Below, in pieces: positions 5,904-38,603 of a stretch of 64,000 bases of DNA. Where the stretch lies: assembly GCA_964649615.1 (NCBI GenBank), contig CAZYPW010000006.1, forward strand, positions 12,635 to 76,634, in the 5' to 3' direction. Below the pieces are notes generated by a model that was given only the letters and a program-made list of their open reading frames with translations, made no database searches and was not told the DNA's origin. Position numbers and translations under genes: made by a program. The stretch's first letter is position 1. Each line of letters begins with the position of its first letter. The stretch is from an uncultured Gammaproteobacteria bacterium (GTDB lineage Bacteria; Patescibacteriota; Microgenomatia; Daviesbacterales; UBA10151).

Positions 5904-5964
5904 TTCTTACCTTAATCATTACTTAAATAAGAAGAAATTGTCAAATCTCTGATACAATATATTT

Positions 5965-6519
5965 ATGGACAAAAAAGCCAGAAGCATTCTTTTAAAAACC
6001 TTAGTTTTTATATTTAGTATAAGTTTAGCATGGTTTTTAGTTAAAAGCGGTTATTTGCACAGCTGGGTGGAGACAGTTCTTCCCCACCAGTTTATAGGAG
6101 AGTTTATAGCTGGCGCCCTTTATACTTCATTTCTTACCTCACCAATTGCAGTTGCTATGTTTTTAGTGATTGCTCAAGAGAGTAACCCGATCATAATAGC
6201 TCTAGTAGGAGGTTTAGGGGCAGCTTGTGGAGATATTTTAATTATAAAATTGTTTAGGGATAATTATAAAAATGATGTTGATAATGTTTCTAAACAATTG
6301 CACTTAAAAAGAATAAGTATATTTTTAAGGCTGTTTCATTTTGAATTTATCATTCCTGTGATCGGGGCAATAATTATTGCCTCCCCTTTCCCAGATGAGA
6401 TTGGACTATTAATGCTGGGAGTCTCCAGGCTTAAATATGGAGAGATTGCCAAGATAAGTTTTGTACTAAACTCCGCAGGAATTTTGTTGATTGCAGCACC
6501 GATTAATTTACTTACATGA
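5965..6519 (+). CDS. Integral membrane protein, hypothetical
   Basis: Multiple TM helices. No recognisable catalytic motif. Confidence 0.4.
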   Translation: MDKKARSILLKTLVFIFSISLAWFLVKSGYLHSWVETVLPHQFIGEFIAGALYTSFLTSPIAVAMFLVIAQESNPIIIALVGGLGAACGDILIIKLFRDNYKNDVDNVSKQLHLKRISIFLRLFHFEFIIPVIGAIIIASPFPDEIGLLMLGVSRLKYGEIAKISFVLNSAGILLIAAPINLLT

Positions 6520-8888
6520 CAGGATTAACAAGCGCTGAAGCAAAACAAGCTTTGGAAAAATTTGGGCCCAATCTTCTCCCTCAAAAAGGCGGTATCTCTA
6601 TCCTAAATATTTTTATCAACCAAATCAAAAACCCTTTTACTATTGTTTTAACTACAGCTATTGTACTTTCCTTCATTGTGGGAGACAAAATTGATGGCAT
6701 CCTGATTGGAGCCATACTGGTTTTAAATACCTTTTTGGGGTTTTGGCAGGAATACAAAGCTTCAAAAGAGCTTGAGGCTTTGAGAAGCCTTGAGGTTTTA
6801 ACCTCCAGAATAATAAGGGATGGCCGTGAAGTGGAAATATCAGCTTCAGAGATAGTACCTCAAGATGTGGTTATTTTAGAAGCTGGAGATAAAGTTCCAG
6901 CAGATGGAAAATTATTAGAAAGTTATTCTTTGCAGGTTAATGAATCTATTTTAACCGGGGAATCCTTGCCTGTTATTAAGAGCCGAACACATCCCTCCTT
7001 CGGAGGTAAAAATGATGAGGACCAGCTTTTTTTTGGAACCACTGTGATTTCAGGAAGAGGAAAGTTTCTTTGTTTACAAACAGGCCTAAATACCCGTTTT
7101 GGCAAAATTGCCCAAACTTTGGCGGAGGTTAAAAGCGAGCAAACACCCCTGGAGATTTCTTTATCTAAGTTAATAAAAGGTGTCAGTTTAGTGGTAATAA
7201 TTGTGACCATCCTAGTGTTTTTGGTGAGATTTTTCCAAGGGTTTGAATTAGCTGAGGTGTTGCTGTCAAGTATTGCCTTAATGGTAGCAGCTGTGCCAGA
7301 AGGGTTGCCTGCAGTGGTGACTATAGTTTTAGCTTTGGGGGTGAGAAAAATGTATCAAAGAAAGGCTTTGGTTAGGAAGATGATTGCGGTGGAGTCTTTA
7401 GGTGCTGCCACAGTTATTTTATCTGATAAAACAGGCACTTTAACTAAAAATGAGATGAGGGTGCAAGTTACAAAGGTAAACAAAGGTTCAGAGGGTGATT
7501 TACTTAAATGTGCAGTGCTTTGTAATAGTGCTAATTTGGTGCTCAAAGAGGACCCGCTTCGCCCGCGACTTGCGTCGACGCAGGTGCGAAGCGAGGCGAG
7601 TGGTTTTGATATTTTAGGAGATACCACTGAGGGGGCTTTACTTCTATGGGCAAAAGACAAAGGTGAGGAGATAGAAGCTTTAAGGTCTGAGGGAAAGCTG
7701 CTTGAGGAAATCCCCTTTTCACTGCAGACTAGAAAGATGACTGTGATCTGGGAACATTCTGGGAAAAAAGCAGCATATACCAAAGGGGCTCCTGAAGTCA
7801 TTTTAAAAGAAGTTAAGCTGCCTGAAAAAGAATTTCTGGTTTGGGAAAAAGAATACCAGAAAATGGCCTCAAAGGGCTTAAGGGTTTTAGGTTTCTCTAA
7901 AGATGAAAAATTCTTAGGGTTAATTGGTATTGCTGATCAGATAAGGGAGGAGGCTAAGGAGGCCATCAGGCTAGCCAAAGGGGCTGGAATTAAAGTCTGT
8001 ATGGTTACAGGAGATAATGAGCTGACAGCTAAAGCAGTCTCTGAACAGTTAGGCTTGCTTGAGGAAGGAGATGAGGTTTTAACAGGGGCTCAACTTAATT
8101 TACTATCTGATGAACAGCTGAAGGAAAGAATAGATAAAATTAAAGTTTATGCCAGGATTGAGCCTTTGGATAAATTAAGAATAGTAAAGATATACCAAAG
8201 CATGGGAGAAGTGGTGGCAGTAACTGGAGATGGGGTTAATGATGCTCTGGCTTTAAAACAGGCCCAGATTGGGGTTTCTATGGGCAAAATTGGCTCTGAT
8301 GTTTCCAAAGAAGCTTCAGACATCATTTTATTAGATGATAACTTTGCTACTCTTGTTTCTGCTGTGGAACAAGGCAGGGTTATTTATGCAAATATCTTAA
8401 AAGTAATTAAATTTTTATTAACTGGGAATTTATCAGAAATTTTACTGATAAGTGTGGCCTCATTTTTAGCTCTTCCCACTCCCCTTCTGCCTACCCAGAT
8501 CCTTTGGATAAACTTTGTTTCAGATGGGCTGCCTGCGCTGTCTTTAGGATTTGATAACCCTTCCTCACATATCATGAGAAATTCTCCTAGAAAGGGCAAT
8601 AATATTTTGGGGGTATCTATGGTAAGATATGTGCTTTTAGGTGGGATATCAATTGGGGCAATTTGTCTATTAACTTTCTATTATATTTATCAAAACTTTG
8701 GGGTAGAGTTAGCCAGGACTATAACTTTTACTCTACTGGTACTGCTGCAGATGATTTTACCTTTTATTATCAGAAGGCATCACTCTATTACTTCCAACAA
8801 AGTGCTTTTATTGTCTGTAATTTTAGTATTAATTATGCAAGCATTAATTCTAACTGTGCCTCAGTTAAGATCTATTTTTAAGATCTAA
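6516..8888 (+). CDS. P-type cation-transporting ATPase (Ca2+/P2-type)
   Basis: DKTGTLT phosphorylation motif, TGDGVNDALAL hinge motif, N-terminal Cation_ATPase_N-like region. Carries a GC-rich in-frame insert at 7553-7603. Confidence 0.9.
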   Translation: MTGLTSAEAKQALEKFGPNLLPQKGGISILNIFINQIKNPFTIVLTTAIVLSFIVGDKIDGILIGAILVLNTFLGFWQEYKASKELEALRSLEVLTSRIIRDGREVEISASEIVPQDVVILEAGDKVPADGKLLESYSLQVNESILTGESLPVIKSRTHPSFGGKNDEDQLFFGTTVISGRGKFLCLQTGLNTRFGKIAQTLAEVKSEQTPLEISLSKLIKGVSLVVIIVTILVFLVRFFQGFELAEVLLSSIALMVAAVPEGLPAVVTIVLALGVRKMYQRKALVRKMIAVESLGAATVILSDKTGTLTKNEMRVQVTKVNKGSEGDLLKCAVLCNSANLVLKEDPLRPRLASTQVRSEASGFDILGDTTEGALLLWAKDKGEEIEALRSEGKLLEEIPFSLQTRKMTVIWEHSGKKAAYTKGAPEVILKEVKLPEKEFLVWEKEYQKMASKGLRVLGFSKDEKFLGLIGIADQIREEAKEAIRLAKGAGIKVCMVTGDNELTAKAVSEQLGLLEEGDEVLTGAQLNLLSDEQLKERIDKIKVYARIEPLDKLRIVKIYQSMGEVVAVTGDGVNDALALKQAQIGVSMGKIGSDVSKEASDIILLDDNFATLVSAVEQGRVIYANILKVIKFLLTGNLSEILLISVASFLALPTPLLPTQILWINFVSDGLPALSLGFDNPSSHIMRNSPRKGNNILGVSMVRYVLLGGISIGAICLLTFYYIYQNFGVELARTITFTLLVLLQMILPFIIRRHHSITSNKVLLLSVILVLIMQALILTVPQLRSIFKI
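7553..7603. repeat. Family-5 GC-rich nested palindrome CGCTTCGC..TGCGTCGACGCA..GCGAAGCG
   Basis: In-frame in the P-type ATPase (DPLRPRLASTQVRSEAS). About 70% GC in a 35% GC gene. Confidence 0.75.
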
Positions 8889-30927: not shown

Positions 30928-31377
30928 ATGAAAAGATTGCTGCCCAAATCAATTAATAATCCTGCTGGTTTTACTCTGGTTGAACTGCTGGTGGTAATAA
31001 CCATTATTGCTATTTTGTCTGTGATTGGCATGGCAGTATTTACAAATGTCCAGAAAAATGCCAGAGATGCAAGAAGAAGATCAGATATAGATGCTATTGC
31101 TAATGCTTTGGAAGTGAATAAAACAGCAACTGCTTATGTAGCTTTAGCTACTACCCACTTTTCTGATGGAGTCATACCGCAAGATCCGTTAAATGTTGCC
31201 TACTGTGCTAACACTACAGTAGATGGGCAACCAGGTAATATAACTGCCAGGGATTGCAGTGCTCCTACAGGGTGGGGTGAAGCTGGAACAACGAACCCTC
31301 CAACAGGAACTGCCTGGAAAATCTGTGCTTACCTGGAGAATCCAGTATCAGCCTATTGTAGAGTTAATGCCCAGTAA
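30928..31377 (+). CDS. Type IV pilin
   Basis: AGFTLVELLVVITIIAILS prepilin N-terminus. Confidence 0.8.
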   Translation: MKRLLPKSINNPAGFTLVELLVVITIIAILSVIGMAVFTNVQKNARDARRRSDIDAIANALEVNKTATAYVALATTHFSDGVIPQDPLNVAYCANTTVDGQPGNITARDCSAPTGWGEAGTTNPPTGTAWKICAYLENPVSAYCRVNAQ

Positions 31378-31380
31378 AAA

Positions 31381-31459
31381 CATTCCTATTTTACGAAGTG
31401 CTGGTTTTACCCTGGTTGAACTTTTGATAGTTATAACTATCATTGCTGTTTTATCTTAA
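31381..31459 (+). pseudogene. Orphan 5' fragment of a pilin gene (prepilin leader plus N-terminal helix only)
   Basis: Encodes ...SAGFTLVELLIVITIIAVLS then a stop. The last 25 nt are identical to 32522-32547 of the intact pilin gene at 32473. Confidence 0.55.
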
Positions 31460-31460
31460 A

Positions 31461-31489
31461 TTTGTAGTTTTAGGCACTTTGTCGTATAC
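31461..31489 (+). promoter_or_regulatory. Candidate sigma70-like promoter for the inserted two-gene cassette
   Basis: TTGTAG-N17-TATACT located 8 nt upstream of the ATG at 31497. Confidence 0.25.
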
Positions 31490-31496
31490 TTAAATC

Positions 31497-31790
31497 ATGC
31501 AACAAGCATCCATGAACAAGTTCGCGCCTTCGGCACTAAAACAAGCATTTTGGGATTATAACTTTAGCGAACGTCAGCTCCTGCAAAAGCTGGAAAAAGG
31601 TACAAAAGAGGAAAAGATATGGATTATAAGAAGAATTCTGGAAAATCTCCCCTTTAAATCTATATGGAGATATACAACACCTGCACAAGTAAAAGATCTC
31701 TTCCCTTATCTTCATCTCCGTCCCAAATTTAAACAAATTTGGAGTTATACTTTGTCTTTGTGGGGAAAATATGAAAAAACCTCTCACTAA
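31497..31790 (+). CDS. Small hypothetical protein, candidate antitoxin partner of the AbiEii-like gene
   Basis: 97-aa ORF that overlaps the downstream nucleotidyltransferase gene by 20 nt. Confidence 0.4.
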   Translation: MQQASMNKFAPSALKQAFWDYNFSERQLLQKLEKGTKEEKIWIIRRILENLPFKSIWRYTTPAQVKDLFPYLHLRPKFKQIWSYTLSLWGKYEKTSH

Positions 31791-32427
31791 GCTTCAAGAA
31801 GAGGTTCTTAAAAACTTTTTTGCCCAACCAATCGGAAAATCCTACTTCCTTACTGGTGGGACTGCGCTTTCTGGATTTTACTTTTACCATCGTGAGAGTA
31901 TTGATCTTGACCTTTTCACCTTTGAAACTATTGAAATTGAGCCTGTAAGACAGATATTTCAGGCTATTGCCACAAAAGCCCGTTTACTTCTTGATCACCG
32001 TGTTGCAACAGATGGATACCATAAATTTTTCCTGACAGGCAAAAATGAGGGGCTTAAAATAGACCTAGTCCAAGATCAAAAAGTGCATTTCGGTCATATT
32101 AAGACTTTTGGAAATATAAGGGTAGATTCAATAGAAAACATTGGCAGCAATAAAATTACCGCAATTTTTGGCAGAACCGAAGCGAAAGACTTTATTGATC
32201 TTTATTTTATTCTCAAAAAAAAGCTATTTACCTTCCAAAAACTATTTCAGGATGCTAAAAAAAAGGACTTGGGTCTTTCTGAATTTTATCTAGCCCACAT
32301 GCTTCTTGAAGTAAAAAATCTAAAATATTTTCCTAAAATATTAGTTTCTTTTAACAAAGAGGACTTGGAAAACTATTTTGTCTCCATGGCCAACAAACTT
32401 CTGCTAGAAACAAAACCTAAGGAATAA
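31771..32427 (+). CDS. AbiEii/AbiGii-family nucleotidyltransferase toxin (DUF1814-like)
   Basis: N-terminal FLTGGTALSGFYFYHRESIDLDLFT is the GGTAL...RxSxDxDhF signature of this family. Confidence 0.65.
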   Translation: MKKPLTKLQEEVLKNFFAQPIGKSYFLTGGTALSGFYFYHRESIDLDLFTFETIEIEPVRQIFQAIATKARLLLDHRVATDGYHKFFLTGKNEGLKIDLVQDQKVHFGHIKTFGNIRVDSIENIGSNKITAIFGRTEAKDFIDLYFILKKKLFTFQKLFQDAKKKDLGLSEFYLAHMLLEVKNLKYFPKILVSFNKEDLENYFVSMANKLLLETKPKE

Positions 32428-32472
32428 AGTGAGTTATGGCATTAGTAAGCCATAATATGTTACTTTTAAAGT

Positions 32473-32919
32473 ATGCACTCTGCCCGTGGTTTTACCTTGG
32501 TGGAACTTCTTATTGTGATAACTATCATTGCTGTTTTATCTTCCATTGGCTTGGCTACTTATACTACATTTAATAAAAATGCCAGGGATGCCAAAAGAAA
32601 AACAGATGCCAATTTTATTCAAAGCGCCCTGGAGCAATATTTTGCAGACCAGACATTTTATCCTTTAGCAGGATCAGGTAATTGTCCAACAGATGCAGAT
32701 GGGCAGTTAAGGTTTGGCTGCTCTCTAACCAATCCTGATGGATCTAAAATTTATCTTACTACTGTGCCTTCTGATTCTGACCCCAGCTCTCCTTATATTT
32801 ATGTCCCTTCTGGTAATTCTTATTGCCTTTTTGCCCAGATGGAAATTCCAGCTAATGCCAAAATTACTTCTCCCTGTACTCCCCCTGCAGGATATAACTC
32901 CTCTGTAACTAGACCATAA
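32473..32919 (+). CDS. Type IV pilin
   Basis: RGFTLVELLIVITIIAVLSS prepilin N-terminus. Confidence 0.8.
   Translation: MHSARGFTLVELLIVITIIAVLSSIGLATYTTFNKNARDAKRKTDANFIQSALEQYFADQTFYPLAGSGNCPTDADGQLRFGCSLTNPDGSKIYLTTVPSDSDPSSPYIYVPSGNSYCLFAQMEIPANAKITSPCTPPAGYNSSVTRP
32522..32547. repeat. 25-bp direct repeat ATAACTATCATTGCTGTTTTATCTT (partner at 31431-31456)
   Basis: Identical copies bracket the AbiE-like cassette. Confidence 0.85.
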
Positions 32920-33076
32920 GCTTTGGATATGCTACGCTAATCTTATGCCCACTAAGAGTTCAAAACTCAAAACTCAAAACTCAAAATTTTGGAAGAATTT
33001 ATATAATAAGTTTTCAAAGAAAACTACCAACACTTTTAACTTTAAACTTTTAACTTTTAACTTTTGGCGCAGCCAA

Positions 33077-33589
33077 ATGGGATTTACCCTCGTTGAGATT
33101 CTGGTTGTGATTGCAATTATCGGTATCATCGGGGCATATATTTTTGTTAACTTCCAAAGCAGCAAAGAAGAACAAAAGGTCCAAAAAGAACTTCTGCAGA
33201 TACAATCTACCCTTAAATTAGCTCAATCTAATGCTTCTGCTTCTGTTGTTTGTGATGATTTAGGCGGAGGTGCCCTGTGGCAAGTGGAACTCAACCCTTC
33301 ATCAGAAACAGTTAAAATAGGTTGTTTAAAAGAGGGAGAAGATCTAAGGCCTAAAAAAACCTATGCTTTAGAAACTGGTGTAAATATGACCTTTTTTTGT
33401 CCTGGGACAGGAAGCAGTTTTAGCTCAATTGTGACCATCACTTATGCCCCCTTTTCTGGTTTGCCTGCATTTGCTGGTGGAGATACTTGTGGTGTAGCAG
33501 GGTTAGGGGTTAGATTCCAAAGCGAAAAGGATTCAGCAATTTTTAAACAATTTACCATATCCTCCGGAGGAGCAGTTCAGGCAAAATAA
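33077..33589 (+). CDS. Type IV pilin / pseudopilin
   Basis: MGFTLVEILVVIAIIGIIG. The upstream part of the ORF-track ORF (32945-33076) is low-complexity AAACTCAAA repeats and was excluded. Confidence 0.7.
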   Translation: MGFTLVEILVVIAIIGIIGAYIFVNFQSSKEEQKVQKELLQIQSTLKLAQSNASASVVCDDLGGGALWQVELNPSSETVKIGCLKEGEDLRPKKTYALETGVNMTFFCPGTGSSFSSIVTITYAPFSGLPAFAGGDTCGVAGLGVRFQSEKDSAIFKQFTISSGGAVQAK

Positions 33590-33598
33590 AAATTCAAA

Positions 33599-34141
33599 AT
33601 GCAAAAGTTAAAATTACAATTCAAAAATCAAAATGGCCAGAGCCTGGTGGAACTGATTGTGGTAGCAACTGTAGCTGTAATTGTGGTGGGTGCTCTCACT
33701 TTTGCCACCATTGCAGCTTTAAGAAATGCTGCTTTCTCTAAAAACCAAACCAAGGCTACTAAGCTGGCCCAAGATGGATTAGAGAGGGTGAGGACTTCCA
33801 GGGATAGAGGCTTGGAAGTAGATCTTTTAGGCAATCCTGATAAGAAATTTTCAGATCTTTGGGGCTTGTTTTTAACAAGAGACTCTTGTAGCGATAAGCC
33901 CTGCTTGTTTGAACTAACTGCAACTGGCAGCTTACAACAAATAAACATCCCAACAGATGTGCAAGAAGTTGAGGGCCTAAGAAGATATATTGAAATTTCA
34001 GATCAAGCAGCCTGTCCCCCTTTATCTTCAAATGAATGTTATAAATTTCAAAAACAAATATCCGCTGTCGTTACCTGGACAGATTTTTCAGGTCCACATG
34101 AATCCAGATTAACAACCATTTTAAGGAACCAAAATATATGA
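33599..34141 (+). CDS. Minor pilin-like protein
   Basis: Leader MQKLKLQFKNQNG, then QSLVELIVVATVAV. Confidence 0.55.
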   Translation: MQKLKLQFKNQNGQSLVELIVVATVAVIVVGALTFATIAALRNAAFSKNQTKATKLAQDGLERVRTSRDRGLEVDLLGNPDKKFSDLWGLFLTRDSCSDKPCLFELTATGSLQQINIPTDVQEVEGLRRYIEISDQAACPPLSSNECYKFQKQISAVVTWTDFSGPHESRLTTILRNQNI

Positions 34142-36609: not shown

Positions 36610-38452
36610 ATTAGTTCGTAGTTTTGAGTTCGTAGTTCGTAGATTTTTTACTATGAACTATGAACTAATAACTCATAACCAAAAAGGCCAGATATTGCTG
36701 ATTATTTTTGTGGTTTTAGCTGTGGTTTTATTTAGCATACTATTTATAGTTACTGGTTCTCAAATTTATTATACAAATAGTACTTACTCTAACAATGTTG
36801 AGGCAGCTAATAATTTAGCTGAGGCAGGAGTAGATAAAGCCTTAGAATCATTGAATAAAACTGGAGGTACTTATAGTGGTGAAGATGAAACTAATCTAGG
36901 AGATGGTTCTTTTTCTGTCCAAATTACCTCTAAAGATGCAGGAATAAAAATTATAGAATCAACAGGTTATATCCCTAACAAAACCAATCCAAAGGTCAAA
37001 AGAACAATCAAAATAGAAACTTCAAAAGGAGTAGGAGCGTCTTTTATCTATGGAATTCAGGTTGGAGAGGGAGGATTGGAGCTTGGCAATAATAATACAG
37101 TTTCGGGTTCAATTTATTCCAATGGAAGCATAATCATGGGTAATAATAATGACATCACCGGAGATGCTTGGGTGGCAGCCGGTATCCCTCCCACCTCTGA
37201 TCAACAAACAGATTGCCTAACATGTGTTGACTACCTTTTTGGTAAAACAATAGATGGCCAAACTAGGCTTGATGTTGCACAAAGCTTTAAACCTTCTATT
37301 ACAGATAAAATCAGGAAGGTAACTCTTAAGATTAAAAAAATAGGTAACCCTCCTGATGCCACAGTTAGAATTATGGGTGATGATAATGGAAAGCCTAAAA
37401 AGCAGGATGTATTTGCAACAGGAACTCTTTCAGGCAGTTTGGTGACAAGCGAATACGGGTGGATAGACGTAACGTTTTTCACAAATCCTACGTTATCTGC
37501 TGATACTACTTATTGGATTATGATTGATACATCATCTGATATTAATAACTTTTGGTCCTGGCAAAATGACCTTGCTCAAAGTTATAACGGTGGTGTGCCC
37601 AAATGGTCACCTAACTGGAGTGCAGGTAATCCTACCTGGAACTCTTTTTCCGGAGATTTAAGCTTTAAAACATATATGGGCGGAACAACTAATTTTATCC
37701 TATCCGGGAATGGCACCACGGTAGTAGGTGATGTTCACGCAAATACCATCGACAGGTTAATAATTGGTAAAGACGCATATTATCAAACCATCACCAATTC
37801 AACTGTCAGCGGTAGTTCTTGCCCCAATGTGAATTGTCATCCAGGATCCGAGGATCCGCCTCCCAAAACCTTTCCTATTTCAGAAGCAAACATATTAGGG
37901 TGGAAAAATGAGGCAGCCATATCAGGTTCTTTAACACAACCAACTTGTGGATCCCAAACTGCCTGGGGGCCGGGTAAATTTACCGGTAGCTTAACTTTGG
38001 GCAATCAGTGCATTATTAAGGTAAAAACCCCCATCTGGATAACTGGAGATATCACCATGGGAAATGAAAATAGGTTTATTCTTGATTCCTCTTACGGGAC
38101 AAGTTCAGGAATAATTATTACTGACGGACAAGTAGATATGGGGAATCAGAATAAGCTTTTAGGTACGGGGGAGGGAAACAGCATTTTGGTGCTTCTTTCC
38201 ACTTATGATTCAAGAACCAATAACAACAGCACCATCACAATTGGCAATATAGGCAATACAGGAGTATTTTATGCAGATAAAGGGATTATTGATCCGGGTA
38301 ATAACAACCAATTTAAGGAGATAACAGCTTGGAAAATAAAAATAACCAATGATTCAATAATAGATTATGAAACAGGTTTAGCTTCTATTCTTTTCTCATC
38401 AGGCCCTTCTGGGTCTTATTCTTTGATCAAAGGAACTTATCAGGTAAAATAA
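36602..38452 (+). CDS. Large pilin-like tip adhesin with N-terminal prepilin-type helix (possible true start at 36653)
   Basis: Leader ...NYELITHNQKG, then QILLIIFVVLAV. About 560-aa Gly/Asn/Thr-rich domain with beta-helix-like repeats (GNNN, ITGD). The first 17 codons derive from a TTCGTAG tandem repeat. Confidence 0.55.
   Translation: MIRLVRSFEFVVRRFFTMNYELITHNQKGQILLIIFVVLAVVLFSILFIVTGSQIYYTNSTYSNNVEAANNLAEAGVDKALESLNKTGGTYSGEDETNLGDGSFSVQITSKDAGIKIIESTGYIPNKTNPKVKRTIKIETSKGVGASFIYGIQVGEGGLELGNNNTVSGSIYSNGSIIMGNNNDITGDAWVAAGIPPTSDQQTDCLTCVDYLFGKTIDGQTRLDVAQSFKPSITDKIRKVTLKIKKIGNPPDATVRIMGDDNGKPKKQDVFATGTLSGSLVTSEYGWIDVTFFTNPTLSADTTYWIMIDTSSDINNFWSWQNDLAQSYNGGVPKWSPNWSAGNPTWNSFSGDLSFKTYMGGTTNFILSGNGTTVVGDVHANTIDRLIIGKDAYYQTITNSTVSGSSCPNVNCHPGSEDPPPKTFPISEANILGWKNEAAISGSLTQPTCGSQTAWGPGKFTGSLTLGNQCIIKVKTPIWITGDITMGNENRFILDSSYGTSSGIIITDGQVDMGNQNKLLGTGEGNSILVLLSTYDSRTNNNSTITIGNIGNTGVFYADKGIIDPGNNNQFKEITAWKIKITNDSIIDYETGLASILFSSGPSGSYSLIKGTYQVK
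36613..36642. repeat. TTCGTAG tandem heptamer array
   Basis: TTCGTAGTTTTGAGTTCGTAGTTCGTAG at the 5' end of the adhesin ORF. Confidence 0.7.
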
Positions 38453-38603
38453 TCTCAAAACTCAAATCGCAAAACATCAATACTGCCTTCGGCAGAACAA
38501 AACTACAACTAAAAGCTTAAATCTTTAAAGTTTTAATATTTAAGATTTAGATTTGCCATTTGACATTTAACATTTGAGATCTGACAATGAATATACTGTC
38601 CAT

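Follow-up and report, generated by a model that had tools for sequence, protein, structure and literature searches.

How did an AbiEii-type gene pair come to lie in the middle of a row of pilin genes, between a truncated pilin start and an intact pilin that share an identical stretch of 25 nt? The question is raised by the type IV pilus (T4P) locus of a Daviesbacteria metagenome-assembled genome (MAG) from the Candidate Phyla Radiation (CPR, or Patescibacteria), which we analysed in a stretch of 64,000 nucleotides of contig CAZYPW010000006.1, hereafter the window. The genes of the locus run in the order PilB, PilT, PilC, pilin, PilD, pilin A, cassette region, pilin B, about seven minor-pilin-like genes and PilM, and the "cassette" is the pair of genes together with a conserved block upstream of it (Table 1). 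T4P are among the few conserved surface machines of CPR/Patescibacteria, and attachment to hosts, movement and the uptake of DNA have been linked to them. The reading that we favour, with a probability of roughly 0.6, is that the pair represents a mobile toxin-antitoxin module of the AbiEii type whose partner protein belongs to a new family, that recombination by the host captured it in pilin arrays at the conserved sequence of pilin N-termini, and that in the window this took the form of an insertion-duplication splitting pilin B.

The insertion into pilin B

The closest B-type pilins on long contigs (63–64% identity) were found in L044/L045 and L046/L047, two pairs of loci collinear with the window from PilT to PilM, in the order PilT-PilC-pilin-PilD-A-B-C...PilM, with neither cassette nor stub. 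They provide the clean pilin-pilin junction (A-B-C) that the initial annotation had proposed to look for in relatives lacking the cassette and, because these syntenic relatives show it, the unit in the window is read as an insertion. Within the inserted segment a spacer of 45 nt separates the cassette from a new pilin 5' end, which runs through the 25-nt tract.

Upstream of the insertion, the orphan pilin 5' end noticed in the initial annotation was confirmed with slightly corrected coordinates, together with the identical stretch in the intact pilin, and the source record, too, lists this stub as an N_methyl gene of 30 aa. It begins with an ATG that overlaps the pilin A stop codon (AATGCCCAGTAA), and the overlap is of the same type, AATGCCCA(A/G)TAA, as that of the single intact B gene of L041, in which the ATG also overlaps the pilin A stop (AATGCCCAATAA) and the cassette comes after B. 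Given this agreement with L041, the stub is, as judged from sequence, the native 5' end of pilin B; the orthologues of pilin A itself stand directly after PilD in L003, L025, L041 and L044. The body of B is now displaced downstream by 1085 nt and preceded by another start and leader (MHSARG); compared with the intact gene, the single B pilins of L041, L025, L044 and L047 show 49–64% identity. We also considered whether this leader could be recognised as foreign to B-type pilins; it turned out not to be discriminating, as leaders of the MHSxxG and of the MPxK.IP.. type both occur among B homologues.

Stub and displaced B share exactly only the 25-nt tract at the joint. Its two copies are 1085 nt apart, with mismatches directly on either side, inside a wider homology of 61 nt that is 87% identical. 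The junction falls exactly at the end of the tract, and homology of the cassette to other loci starts immediately after it. To judge chance similarity, 60 pilin N-terminal segments of 57 nt from 11 loci were compared in register (1770 pairs): the pair formed by the stub and pilin B had the longest exact run, followed by runs of 23 and 21 nt, and only 12 pairs reached 20 nt or more. Six differences separate stub and pilin B; all are synonymous and confined to the 10 codons preceding the tract, the eight tract codons having none, a split for which a Fisher test calculated by hand gives p ~0.01. The tract exceeds the ordinary conservation of pilin N-termini, though not by orders of magnitude.

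On these observations, the favoured reading would proceed as follows. The module would be mobile among CPR/Patescibacteria and land preferentially in T4P pilin arrays. Incoming DNA carrying the cassette, a spacer and a pilin 5' end, a donor layout that is common, as the cassette mostly lies directly upstream of a same-strand pilin, would recombine within the conserved N-terminal segment of pilin B. The first 30 native B codons would thereby be left as the stub, the B body would be re-fused to the incoming 5' end, and the 25-nt identical tract would mark the crossover. The route may have been a Campbell-type single crossover, or transformed DNA may have recombined with homology as its anchor. 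For the mechanism at the joint the 25-nt tract is suggestive; the flanks have diverged too far from locus to locus for recombination tracts to be mapped. Natural competence has been found in cultivated Saccharibacteria, the only CPR group tested (PMC10633639), which makes transformation and recombination a plausible route in Daviesbacteria. If it acts like AbiEii and MenT, the nucleotidyltransferase would stop growth by adding nucleotides to a target in the cell, probably the 3' ends of tRNAs, while the small protein would neutralise it, in a role like that of AbiEi though coming from a different family and nearer in size to MenA1. The embedded module would most plausibly be an addiction or abortive-infection element in a repeat-rich, fast-evolving locus for a surface structure.

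Table 1. Positions in the window of the features of the pilin array and of the cassette.
Feature	Positions	Strand	Basis and remarks
Pilin A, intact prepilin, 149 aa	30928..31377	+	Pfam N_methyl, E 6e-8; stop codon overlaps the start of the stub
5' stub assigned to pilin B, 30-codon open reading frame, MPSKNIPILRSAG/FTLVELLIVITIIAVLS and stop	31367..31459	+	Sequence; full leader and cleavage site (slash); ends exactly at the cassette start
Tract copy 1, exact 25 nt, ATAACTATCATTGCTGTTTTATCTT, encodes ITIIAVLS	31433..31457	+	Sequence comparison
Inserted segment relative to cassette-free relatives, 1085 nt	31458..32542	+	L044 and L047 collinear on both sides, no counterpart
Conserved upstream block (AAATTTGTAG...TATACTTAAATC), 39 nt	31458..31496	+	Near-invariant in 7 to 9 loci; putative promoter/operator
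Small partner gene (predicted antitoxin), 97 aa	31497..31790	+	43 close homologues; AlphaFold2 pLDDT 82, six helices; FWDYNF motif
AbiEii/DUF1814 nucleotidyltransferase (predicted toxin), 218 aa	31771..32427	+	PF08843, PADLOC, motifs; overlaps the small gene by 20 nt
Hairpin, weak, terminator-like, 3' of the toxin stop	32433..32456	+	Scan; not conserved in other loci
Pilin B, intact, 148 aa	32473..32919	+	Pfam N_methyl; second 5' end (MHSARG/FTLVELL...) joined to a B-type body
Tract copy 2, exact 25 nt, within intact pilin B	32518..32542	+	Sequence comparison

The cassette and its two proteins

The cassette is a discrete unit of about 970 bp (31458–32427) in which the upstream block is followed by the gene of the 97-aa protein and then by that of the 218-aa protein. 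The order, with the small gene first and overlapping the toxin gene, is conserved in all loci, the overlap of 20 nt recurs from locus to locus, and the toxin gene is translationally coupled to the small one. The upstream block contains a −35-like TTGTAG (31462–31467) and, after 17 nt, a −10-like TATACT (31485–31490), as well as a direct repeat TTTGTAG/TTTGTCG. The promoter-like pair of hexamers described in the initial annotation is thus present and is almost invariant across loci, and the near-invariance of the block suggests that it serves as promoter and operator. The sequence 5' of it is unrelated from locus to locus, and the left edge of the cassette is identical (AAATTTGTAG) in the window, L025, L017 and L041, each time joined to unrelated DNA.

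Further variants of this region were observed. In L030 (~200–233) and L035 (~5960–6000) the cassette lies directly behind pilD, whose 3' end replaces the −35-like half so that only TTTGTCGTATACTTAA is left; this fusion implies co-transcription with pilD. L015 carries two tandem modules, each with a small gene and an AbiEii gene (6001–6928 and 6980–7863), whose toxins are only ~32% identical and yet share a perfect 31-nt upstream sequence (5954–5984 and 6932–6962) standing in place of the TTGTAG...TATACT block that is invariant elsewhere; this points to an exchange of promoters between module types. The 31-nt direct repeat was also considered as an att site or a target-site duplication; it corresponds to the duplicated promoter region of the two tandem modules.

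As for a dedicated mobility system, the unit does not have the make-up of a transposon or insertion sequence, as it holds two open reading frames only and no transposase, and a comparison of four loci revealed no conserved terminal inverted repeats. The 25-nt tract was itself considered as the target-site duplication of a transposon and rejected, since the repeats are pilin coding sequence and the leaders 5' of the two copies differ completely. Nor does the cassette resemble that of an integron, no structured, attC-like inverted repeat being conserved at its 3' end. Among the genes called within 10 kb there is no integrase; the remainder of the window was not searched for one.

Profile searches placed the 218-aa protein in the AbiEii/DUF1814 family, as the initial annotation had proposed, with 53.7 bits and E 3.7e-14 against Pfam PF08843 (gathering score 22.5) and matches to 12 PADLOC AbiEii models (best E 5.1e-16). 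The catalytic motifs have been defined as hG[GS]x9-15DhD with the family Arg (I/II), a Lys flanked by hydrophobics, KLxAaxxR-like (III), and +DxxD (IV) (Dy et al. 2014, PMC3985639). All four are kept here: FLTGGTALSGFYFYHRESIDLDLF for motifs I/II (LTGGTAL-x-HRESIDLDLF, family Arg included), NKITAIFGR for III and KDFID for IV. They align to a solved DUF1814 protein (PDB 4o8s/4ok0), and the GGTAL/DxD motif, whose absence the initial annotation would have counted against the assignment, is there as GGTAL...DLD in the alignment to 4o8s. The gene evolves under purifying selection, with a ratio of nonsynonymous to synonymous divergence (dN/dS) of ~0.08–0.18, and by analogy with the characterised members of the family its product is probably a toxin.

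The small protein had been suggested to be AbiEi or COG5340, which was not upheld: no AbiEi hit was obtained in Pfam, NCBIfam or PADLOC at E values up to 1, and the AlphaFold2 model is all-helical, without strands and without a winged-helix element among its helices. Neither by fold nor by sequence did it match a PDB chain, MenA1 included. Its family consists mostly of proteins of 89 aa, 63–84% identical, with an invariant KQAFWDY motif, and a profile search of 1.84 billion representatives returned only 102 relatives; the gene is also under purifying selection (dN/dS ~0.14–0.3). Weak matches to DUF6922 were found in 19 of the 22 family members (best E 0.02), more distant relatives score 19–22 bits on DUF6922, and a bona fide DUF6922+AbiEii pair is present in L038. 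The sequence comparisons thus indicate a separate family, distantly DUF6922-like and consistently paired with AbiEii. Outside the CPR, a Myxococcales MAG rich in GC (L021) has relatives of the small gene upstream of AbiEii, with no pilins near the pair, and in P0069, a 339-aa protein of a GC-rich organism, the small domain (~24–99) and AbiEii (132–286) form a natural in-frame fusion.

The genomic behaviour of the pair matches that of a toxin-antitoxin system. In L009–L014 the toxin gene is cut to its last ~74 nt, and the small gene (89 aa) and the upstream block are intact (L009 2764–3141) directly upstream of a pilin, either as an orphan antitoxin or as a retained promoter; toxin loss with retention of the small gene is the asymmetric decay expected of such a pair. 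No locus holds the toxin without the small gene. The general features of toxin-antitoxin modules are therefore found here, with the toxin lost and the antitoxin kept but never the reverse, and with a patchy, horizontally spread distribution, which points to the small protein as the putative antitoxin partner of the AbiEii toxin.

Some variation in the two proteins was also recorded. The small protein of the window has an 8-aa N-terminal insertion (MNKFAPSA; nt 31512–31535) shared only by the L015 copy (6001–6294), and residues 1–9 of the AlphaFold2 model are of low confidence (pLDDT <50). About 20 relatives of ~143 aa possess an extra N-terminal extension of ~65 aa; a ribbon-helix-helix was considered for it and was unconfirmed by Pfam, which gave only a weak DUF6290 match in one member. 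In L020, a Levybacteria MAG, a decayed module (6001–6400) retains a remnant of the small protein, and a membrane/TPR protein of 804 aa carries the first ~60 AbiEii residues (FFLTGGTCLSAFYLAHR) as an N-terminal fusion. Small GIY-YIG nuclease genes adjoin AbiEii modules in L015 (5664–5909, reverse strand, intact) and in L020 (5708–6046, forward strand, decayed).

Recurrence in pilin arrays and horizontal spread

Is the window a single accident? To answer, loci with enough flanking sequence were counted after near-duplicates had been collapsed; the numbers are small and carry no phylogenetic correction. About 12 of 15 independent loci hold the cassette inside a T4P pilin array, at no fewer than seven distinct positions and in both orientations: directly after PilD (L030, L035), after pilin A and a stub (window, L025), after a HepT-MNT pair (L003), after five pilins (L018), after a cupredoxin gene (L006), after an intact B (L041, L038) and reversed (L015). 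Most loci have the cassette directly upstream of a same-strand pilin. The association with pilin arrays recurs across CPR lineages and is not a one-off.

Pilin stubs abutting a cargo were found in five loci, namely the window, L025, L015, L023 and L038, so that the succession of stub, cargo and intact pilin is also seen elsewhere, twice in L025, in L015, in L023 (with three stubs in a row) and in L038. In all five the non-pilin cargo starts 0–90 nt past the end of the pilin homology, and the first stub of L025 abuts the cassette edge exactly. The stub of L015 has 27 of 28 nt in common with the next intact pilin, with two opposite-strand modules in between, and that of L038 abuts a reverse DUF6922/AbiEii remnant, an intact B-type pilin coming next. 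Since the junction codons differ between loci, the joints are independent events. In L025, moreover, the region beyond the cassette (6904–7939) begins with another truncated pilin (MNKKGFTLIELL...NARDAR/); between it and the intact B-type pilin lies a DUF3800 gene on the reverse strand (263 aa, E 1e-7).

Other genes of the toxin-antitoxin or defence type occupy the same arrays, i.e. a second AbiEii type (L006, L015, L038), HepT-MNT (L003) and DUF3800 (L025). The HepT-MNT pair (HEPN/minimal nucleotidyltransferase) of L003 (5003–5825), seen also in L004 (2244–3066), separates pilin A from the cassette and is encoded on the reverse strand; its position is the one that the stub has in the window.

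The degree of divergence indicates that the cassette moved. In BLASTN comparisons the cassette of the window is ~77–82% identical at nucleotide level to those of other loci, from 31458–31462 to the toxin stop codon. Its synonymous divergence (dS) is 0.35–1.05 against 14 loci, the proteins being 70–87% identical, whereas PilT, PilC and PilD in the same genome pairs have dS >2 or are saturated. Against L027, for example, PilD is only 36% identical, and the toxin is 85% identical with a dS of 0.66. Because the dS of the cassette is far below that of the flanking pilus genes, its history is decoupled from that of its hosts, which indicates that it spread horizontally, or by allelic replacement, among CPR lineages; most of the related contigs are short. 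Four of the MAG records involved (L015, L017, L018, L019) are titled "uncultured Gammaproteobacteria" and carry CPR-type pilus loci and the cassette, with up to 87% protein identity to the Daviesbacteria copy; owing to these CPR-type pilus loci with cassette, the Gammaproteobacteria labels look unreliable.

Competing explanations and known systems

Several observations speak against capture by recombination and have to be weighed before the alternatives. Most copies in pilin arrays are entirely without a stub, so that the direct repeats, taken initially as the borders of the cassette, are no part of it. The initial annotation had named the occurrence of the two genes without the pilin fragment in related genomes as evidence against the insertion; this is literally what most loci show, yet the insertion is not overturned by it. 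Three loci have the cassette outside any pilus locus (next to groES/EL, to LytR/VirB4-like genes, and to a kinase and RecG). The junction codons vary (~30 in the window, ~50–55 and 40 in L025, ~16 in L015, ~25 in L038), no single joint having been propagated, and the stub pattern is biased, as only 5' stubs are recognisable because the 3' parts of pilins are hypervariable. The 25-nt run is extreme, yet the maximum of the background is close, at 23. No convincing similarity of the right flanks was seen between loci, where the pilin 5' end following the cassette is not conserved, so that its co-transfer with the cassette is conjectural. Regarding the module itself, the best sequence match of the 218-aa protein in the PDB reaches only E 0.01, and for toxicity, neutralisation and target the reasoning extends from homologues that are distant. 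In the small protein neither a DNA-binding fold nor one typical of antitoxins can be recognised, and its match to DUF6922 (PF21956) stays below the gathering score (13.3 bits, E 0.058, vs 27). A sigma-70 consensus scan did not report the TTGTAG-N17-TATACT element, whose first hexamer matches at 3 of 6 positions only; in general, the terminator and promoter scans gave site numbers not above those of shuffled sequence.

A broader claim, which we regard as doubtful in its full extent, is that the conserved N-terminal coding segment of pilins acts as a portable, recombinase-free integration site in CPR, where cargo plus a pilin 5' end inserts by homology, leaving a stub and regenerating a pilin. 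Pilin arrays would then be integrase-less integrons accumulating cargo, in which toxin-antitoxin modules would guard the array against deletion and might place pilin expression under the influence of their own autoregulated promoter.

Duplication followed by decay, although we consider it rather unlikely, is the rival that best withstands the comparison. It assumes an ancestral order A-B1-cassette-B2 with the cassette in an intergenic position, from which B1 lost its 3' part, the 25-nt identity being due to paralogue similarity or gene conversion. The full-length B directly upstream of the cassette in L041, the stub of ~50–55 codons in L025 and the shorter one in the window do resemble a series of decay. 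The differences between the junctions of every locus agree with this explanation, as does the recognisability of 5' remnants only, and pilin N-termini are conserved enough to give exact runs of 20–23 nt between unrelated genomes. Selection would act against deletions that reach an addiction module, and this could be why they stop at the cassette edge. On the other hand, cassette-free relatives and L041 have one B gene only, so that three events (duplication, insertion and deletion) would be needed, and the closeness of cargo to the end of pilin homology (0–90 nt in 5/5 stub cases) speaks against it. Moreover, the joints of the window and of L025, which are independent, coincide at one and the same end of the cassette, AAATTTGTAG, and neither has a remnant of the pilin 3' part, and the cassette dS against L025 and L041 (0.4–0.7) lies far below that of the host pilus genes, which argues that the three cassettes were not simply inherited in place.

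The pair could instead be a dedicated accessory or regulatory module of the T4P, which for example modifies a pilus component or regulates pilin transcription. Its strong and repeated co-location with pilins, usually on the same strand and directly upstream of one, would be expected in that case, and so would the copies directly behind pilD without their own −35 element (L030, L035) and the small gene and upstream block kept before a pilin after toxin loss (L009–L014). Close syntenic relatives, however, have complete pilus loci without the pair, which also occurs away from pilin genes (groES/EL, LytR/VirB4-like, kinase/RecG, the Myxococcales MAG), while its position within arrays varies and its orientation in L015 is opposite. 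Considering also that the divergence pattern indicates horizontal spread and that classic toxin-antitoxin/defence genes (HepT-MNT, DUF3800, the second AbiEii type) occupy the same arrays, we hold this explanation to be improbable. Finally, a mis-assembly at a shared k-mer, or a chance similarity of pilin N-termini, is hardly credible even for a MAG contig with numerous repeats of pilin N-terminal sequence in a stretch of 6 kb, since a mis-join at the tract needs another molecule with the tract followed by the cassette, i.e. the same structure, the final k-mers of common assemblers are longer than a 25-nt repeat, equivalent stub-cargo architectures exist in independent assemblies from other samples (L015, L023, L025, L038), and the stub/pilin-B pair is the top of the 1770.

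If the pair is a captured toxin-antitoxin module, how does it relate to known ones? AbiEii/DUF1814 toxins, the diversity of their antitoxins and their mobility are established (PMC3985639, PMC7450476, PMC11375011), and AbiE has already been noted in CPR genomes (PMC8080830). With AbiE (AbiEi-AbiEii, a type IV toxin-antitoxin and abortive infection system; PMC3985639) the cassette shares the overlapping bicistronic operon with the small gene first and the DUF1814/AbiEii gene second, the four motifs, a highly conserved promoter-proximal block compatible with autoregulation, and a location in horizontally moving DNA. It differs in the partner, of 89–97 aa and without the COG5340 winged helix or detectable similarity, against ~200–300 aa for AbiEi; in the block, with short direct repeats instead of the 23-3-23 inverted repeats of AbiE; and in the shorter toxin (218 aa). 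MenA1-MenT1, of the MenAT systems of Mycobacterium tuberculosis (PMC10435456, PMC11375011), likewise couples a DUF1814 toxin with a very small helical antitoxin unrelated to AbiEi, although our small protein has no similarity to MenA1 in sequence or fold. In these systems DUF1814 toxins recruit diverse small partners, which may bind the toxin or induce its auto-phosphorylation (PMC10435456, PMC11375011). The DUF6922 proteins encoded next to AbiEii have in common with the small protein an F/YWD(Y/V)D/N N-terminal motif and, in L038, a pair in the same kind of pilin array; the match, however, is sub-threshold (13 vs 27 bits) and covers only ~30 residues.

Regarding the way of moving, the closest parallel is offered by the minimal mobile elements of Neisseria, in which cargo between conserved flanking genes is exchanged by transformation and homologous recombination (PMC1538595, PMC3082526). 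As in those elements, the cargo here has no mobility genes, empty sites (L044–L047) and alternative cargos (HepT-MNT, DUF3800, the second AbiEii type) exist, and the presumed vehicle is natural transformation with host recombination. Unlike in Neisseria, the homology would be a short conserved coding segment (~60–120 nt) repeated many times within one locus rather than two unique flanking genes, insertions in pilin arrays leave truncated gene stubs, and competence of the Daviesbacteria host has to be presumed. The chromosomal superintegrons of Vibrio have toxin-antitoxin modules interspersed in a repeat-rich array, where they are thought to oppose array deletion. Small toxin-antitoxin modules within a repeat-rich gene array are what the two have in common; the cassette differs in having neither attC-like sites nor terminal inverted repeats, nor, within 10 kb, a called integrase gene, and its repeats are protein-coding pilin N-termini.

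In the literature searched there was no paper on DUF6922, no link of AbiEii or toxin-antitoxin genes to CPR pilin loci and no description of pilin stubs in CPR. It appears, then, that the toxin family is known, the partner family uncharacterised, and the preferential, repeated capture in T4P pilin arrays undescribed; pilus clusters look like preferred landing sites for selfish or defence modules. If pilin arrays do collect mobile toxin-antitoxin modules, this would bear on how tiny genomes gain and retain accessory genes, on phage pressure at a likely receptor and on the stabilisation of repeat-rich arrays, and the stub architecture would provide a model for gene capture via short coding-sequence homology. 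The small protein would represent a new partner family for DUF1814 toxins (~89 aa, FWDYN motif, sometimes fused to the toxin, no solved homologue), at a time when the antitoxin mechanisms of these toxins are under active study (PMC11375011).

Minor observations concern the rest of the array. No GC anomaly was detected over the cassette, and neither Rfam families nor tRNAs were found in the window. Between pilin B and the next pilin there are perfect or near-perfect heptamer tandem repeats, TCAAAAC x3.9 and ACTTTTA x4.9 (32960–32986 and 33032–33065), part of which fall within the long predicted leader of the open reading frame 32945–33589; further tracts of this kind lie at 33581–33634 and 38451–38580, and similar ones, translating as "KLQFKIQ", precede pilins in L006. 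Long leaders are also seen in P0145 and in about 10 other B-type pilin homologues, where a relic "GFT.." prepilin motif comes before the real cleavage site (e.g. ...NPKGFTLVRSEG/FTLVELL), which suggests that in these lineages pilin 5' ends are often duplicated in part or recombined.

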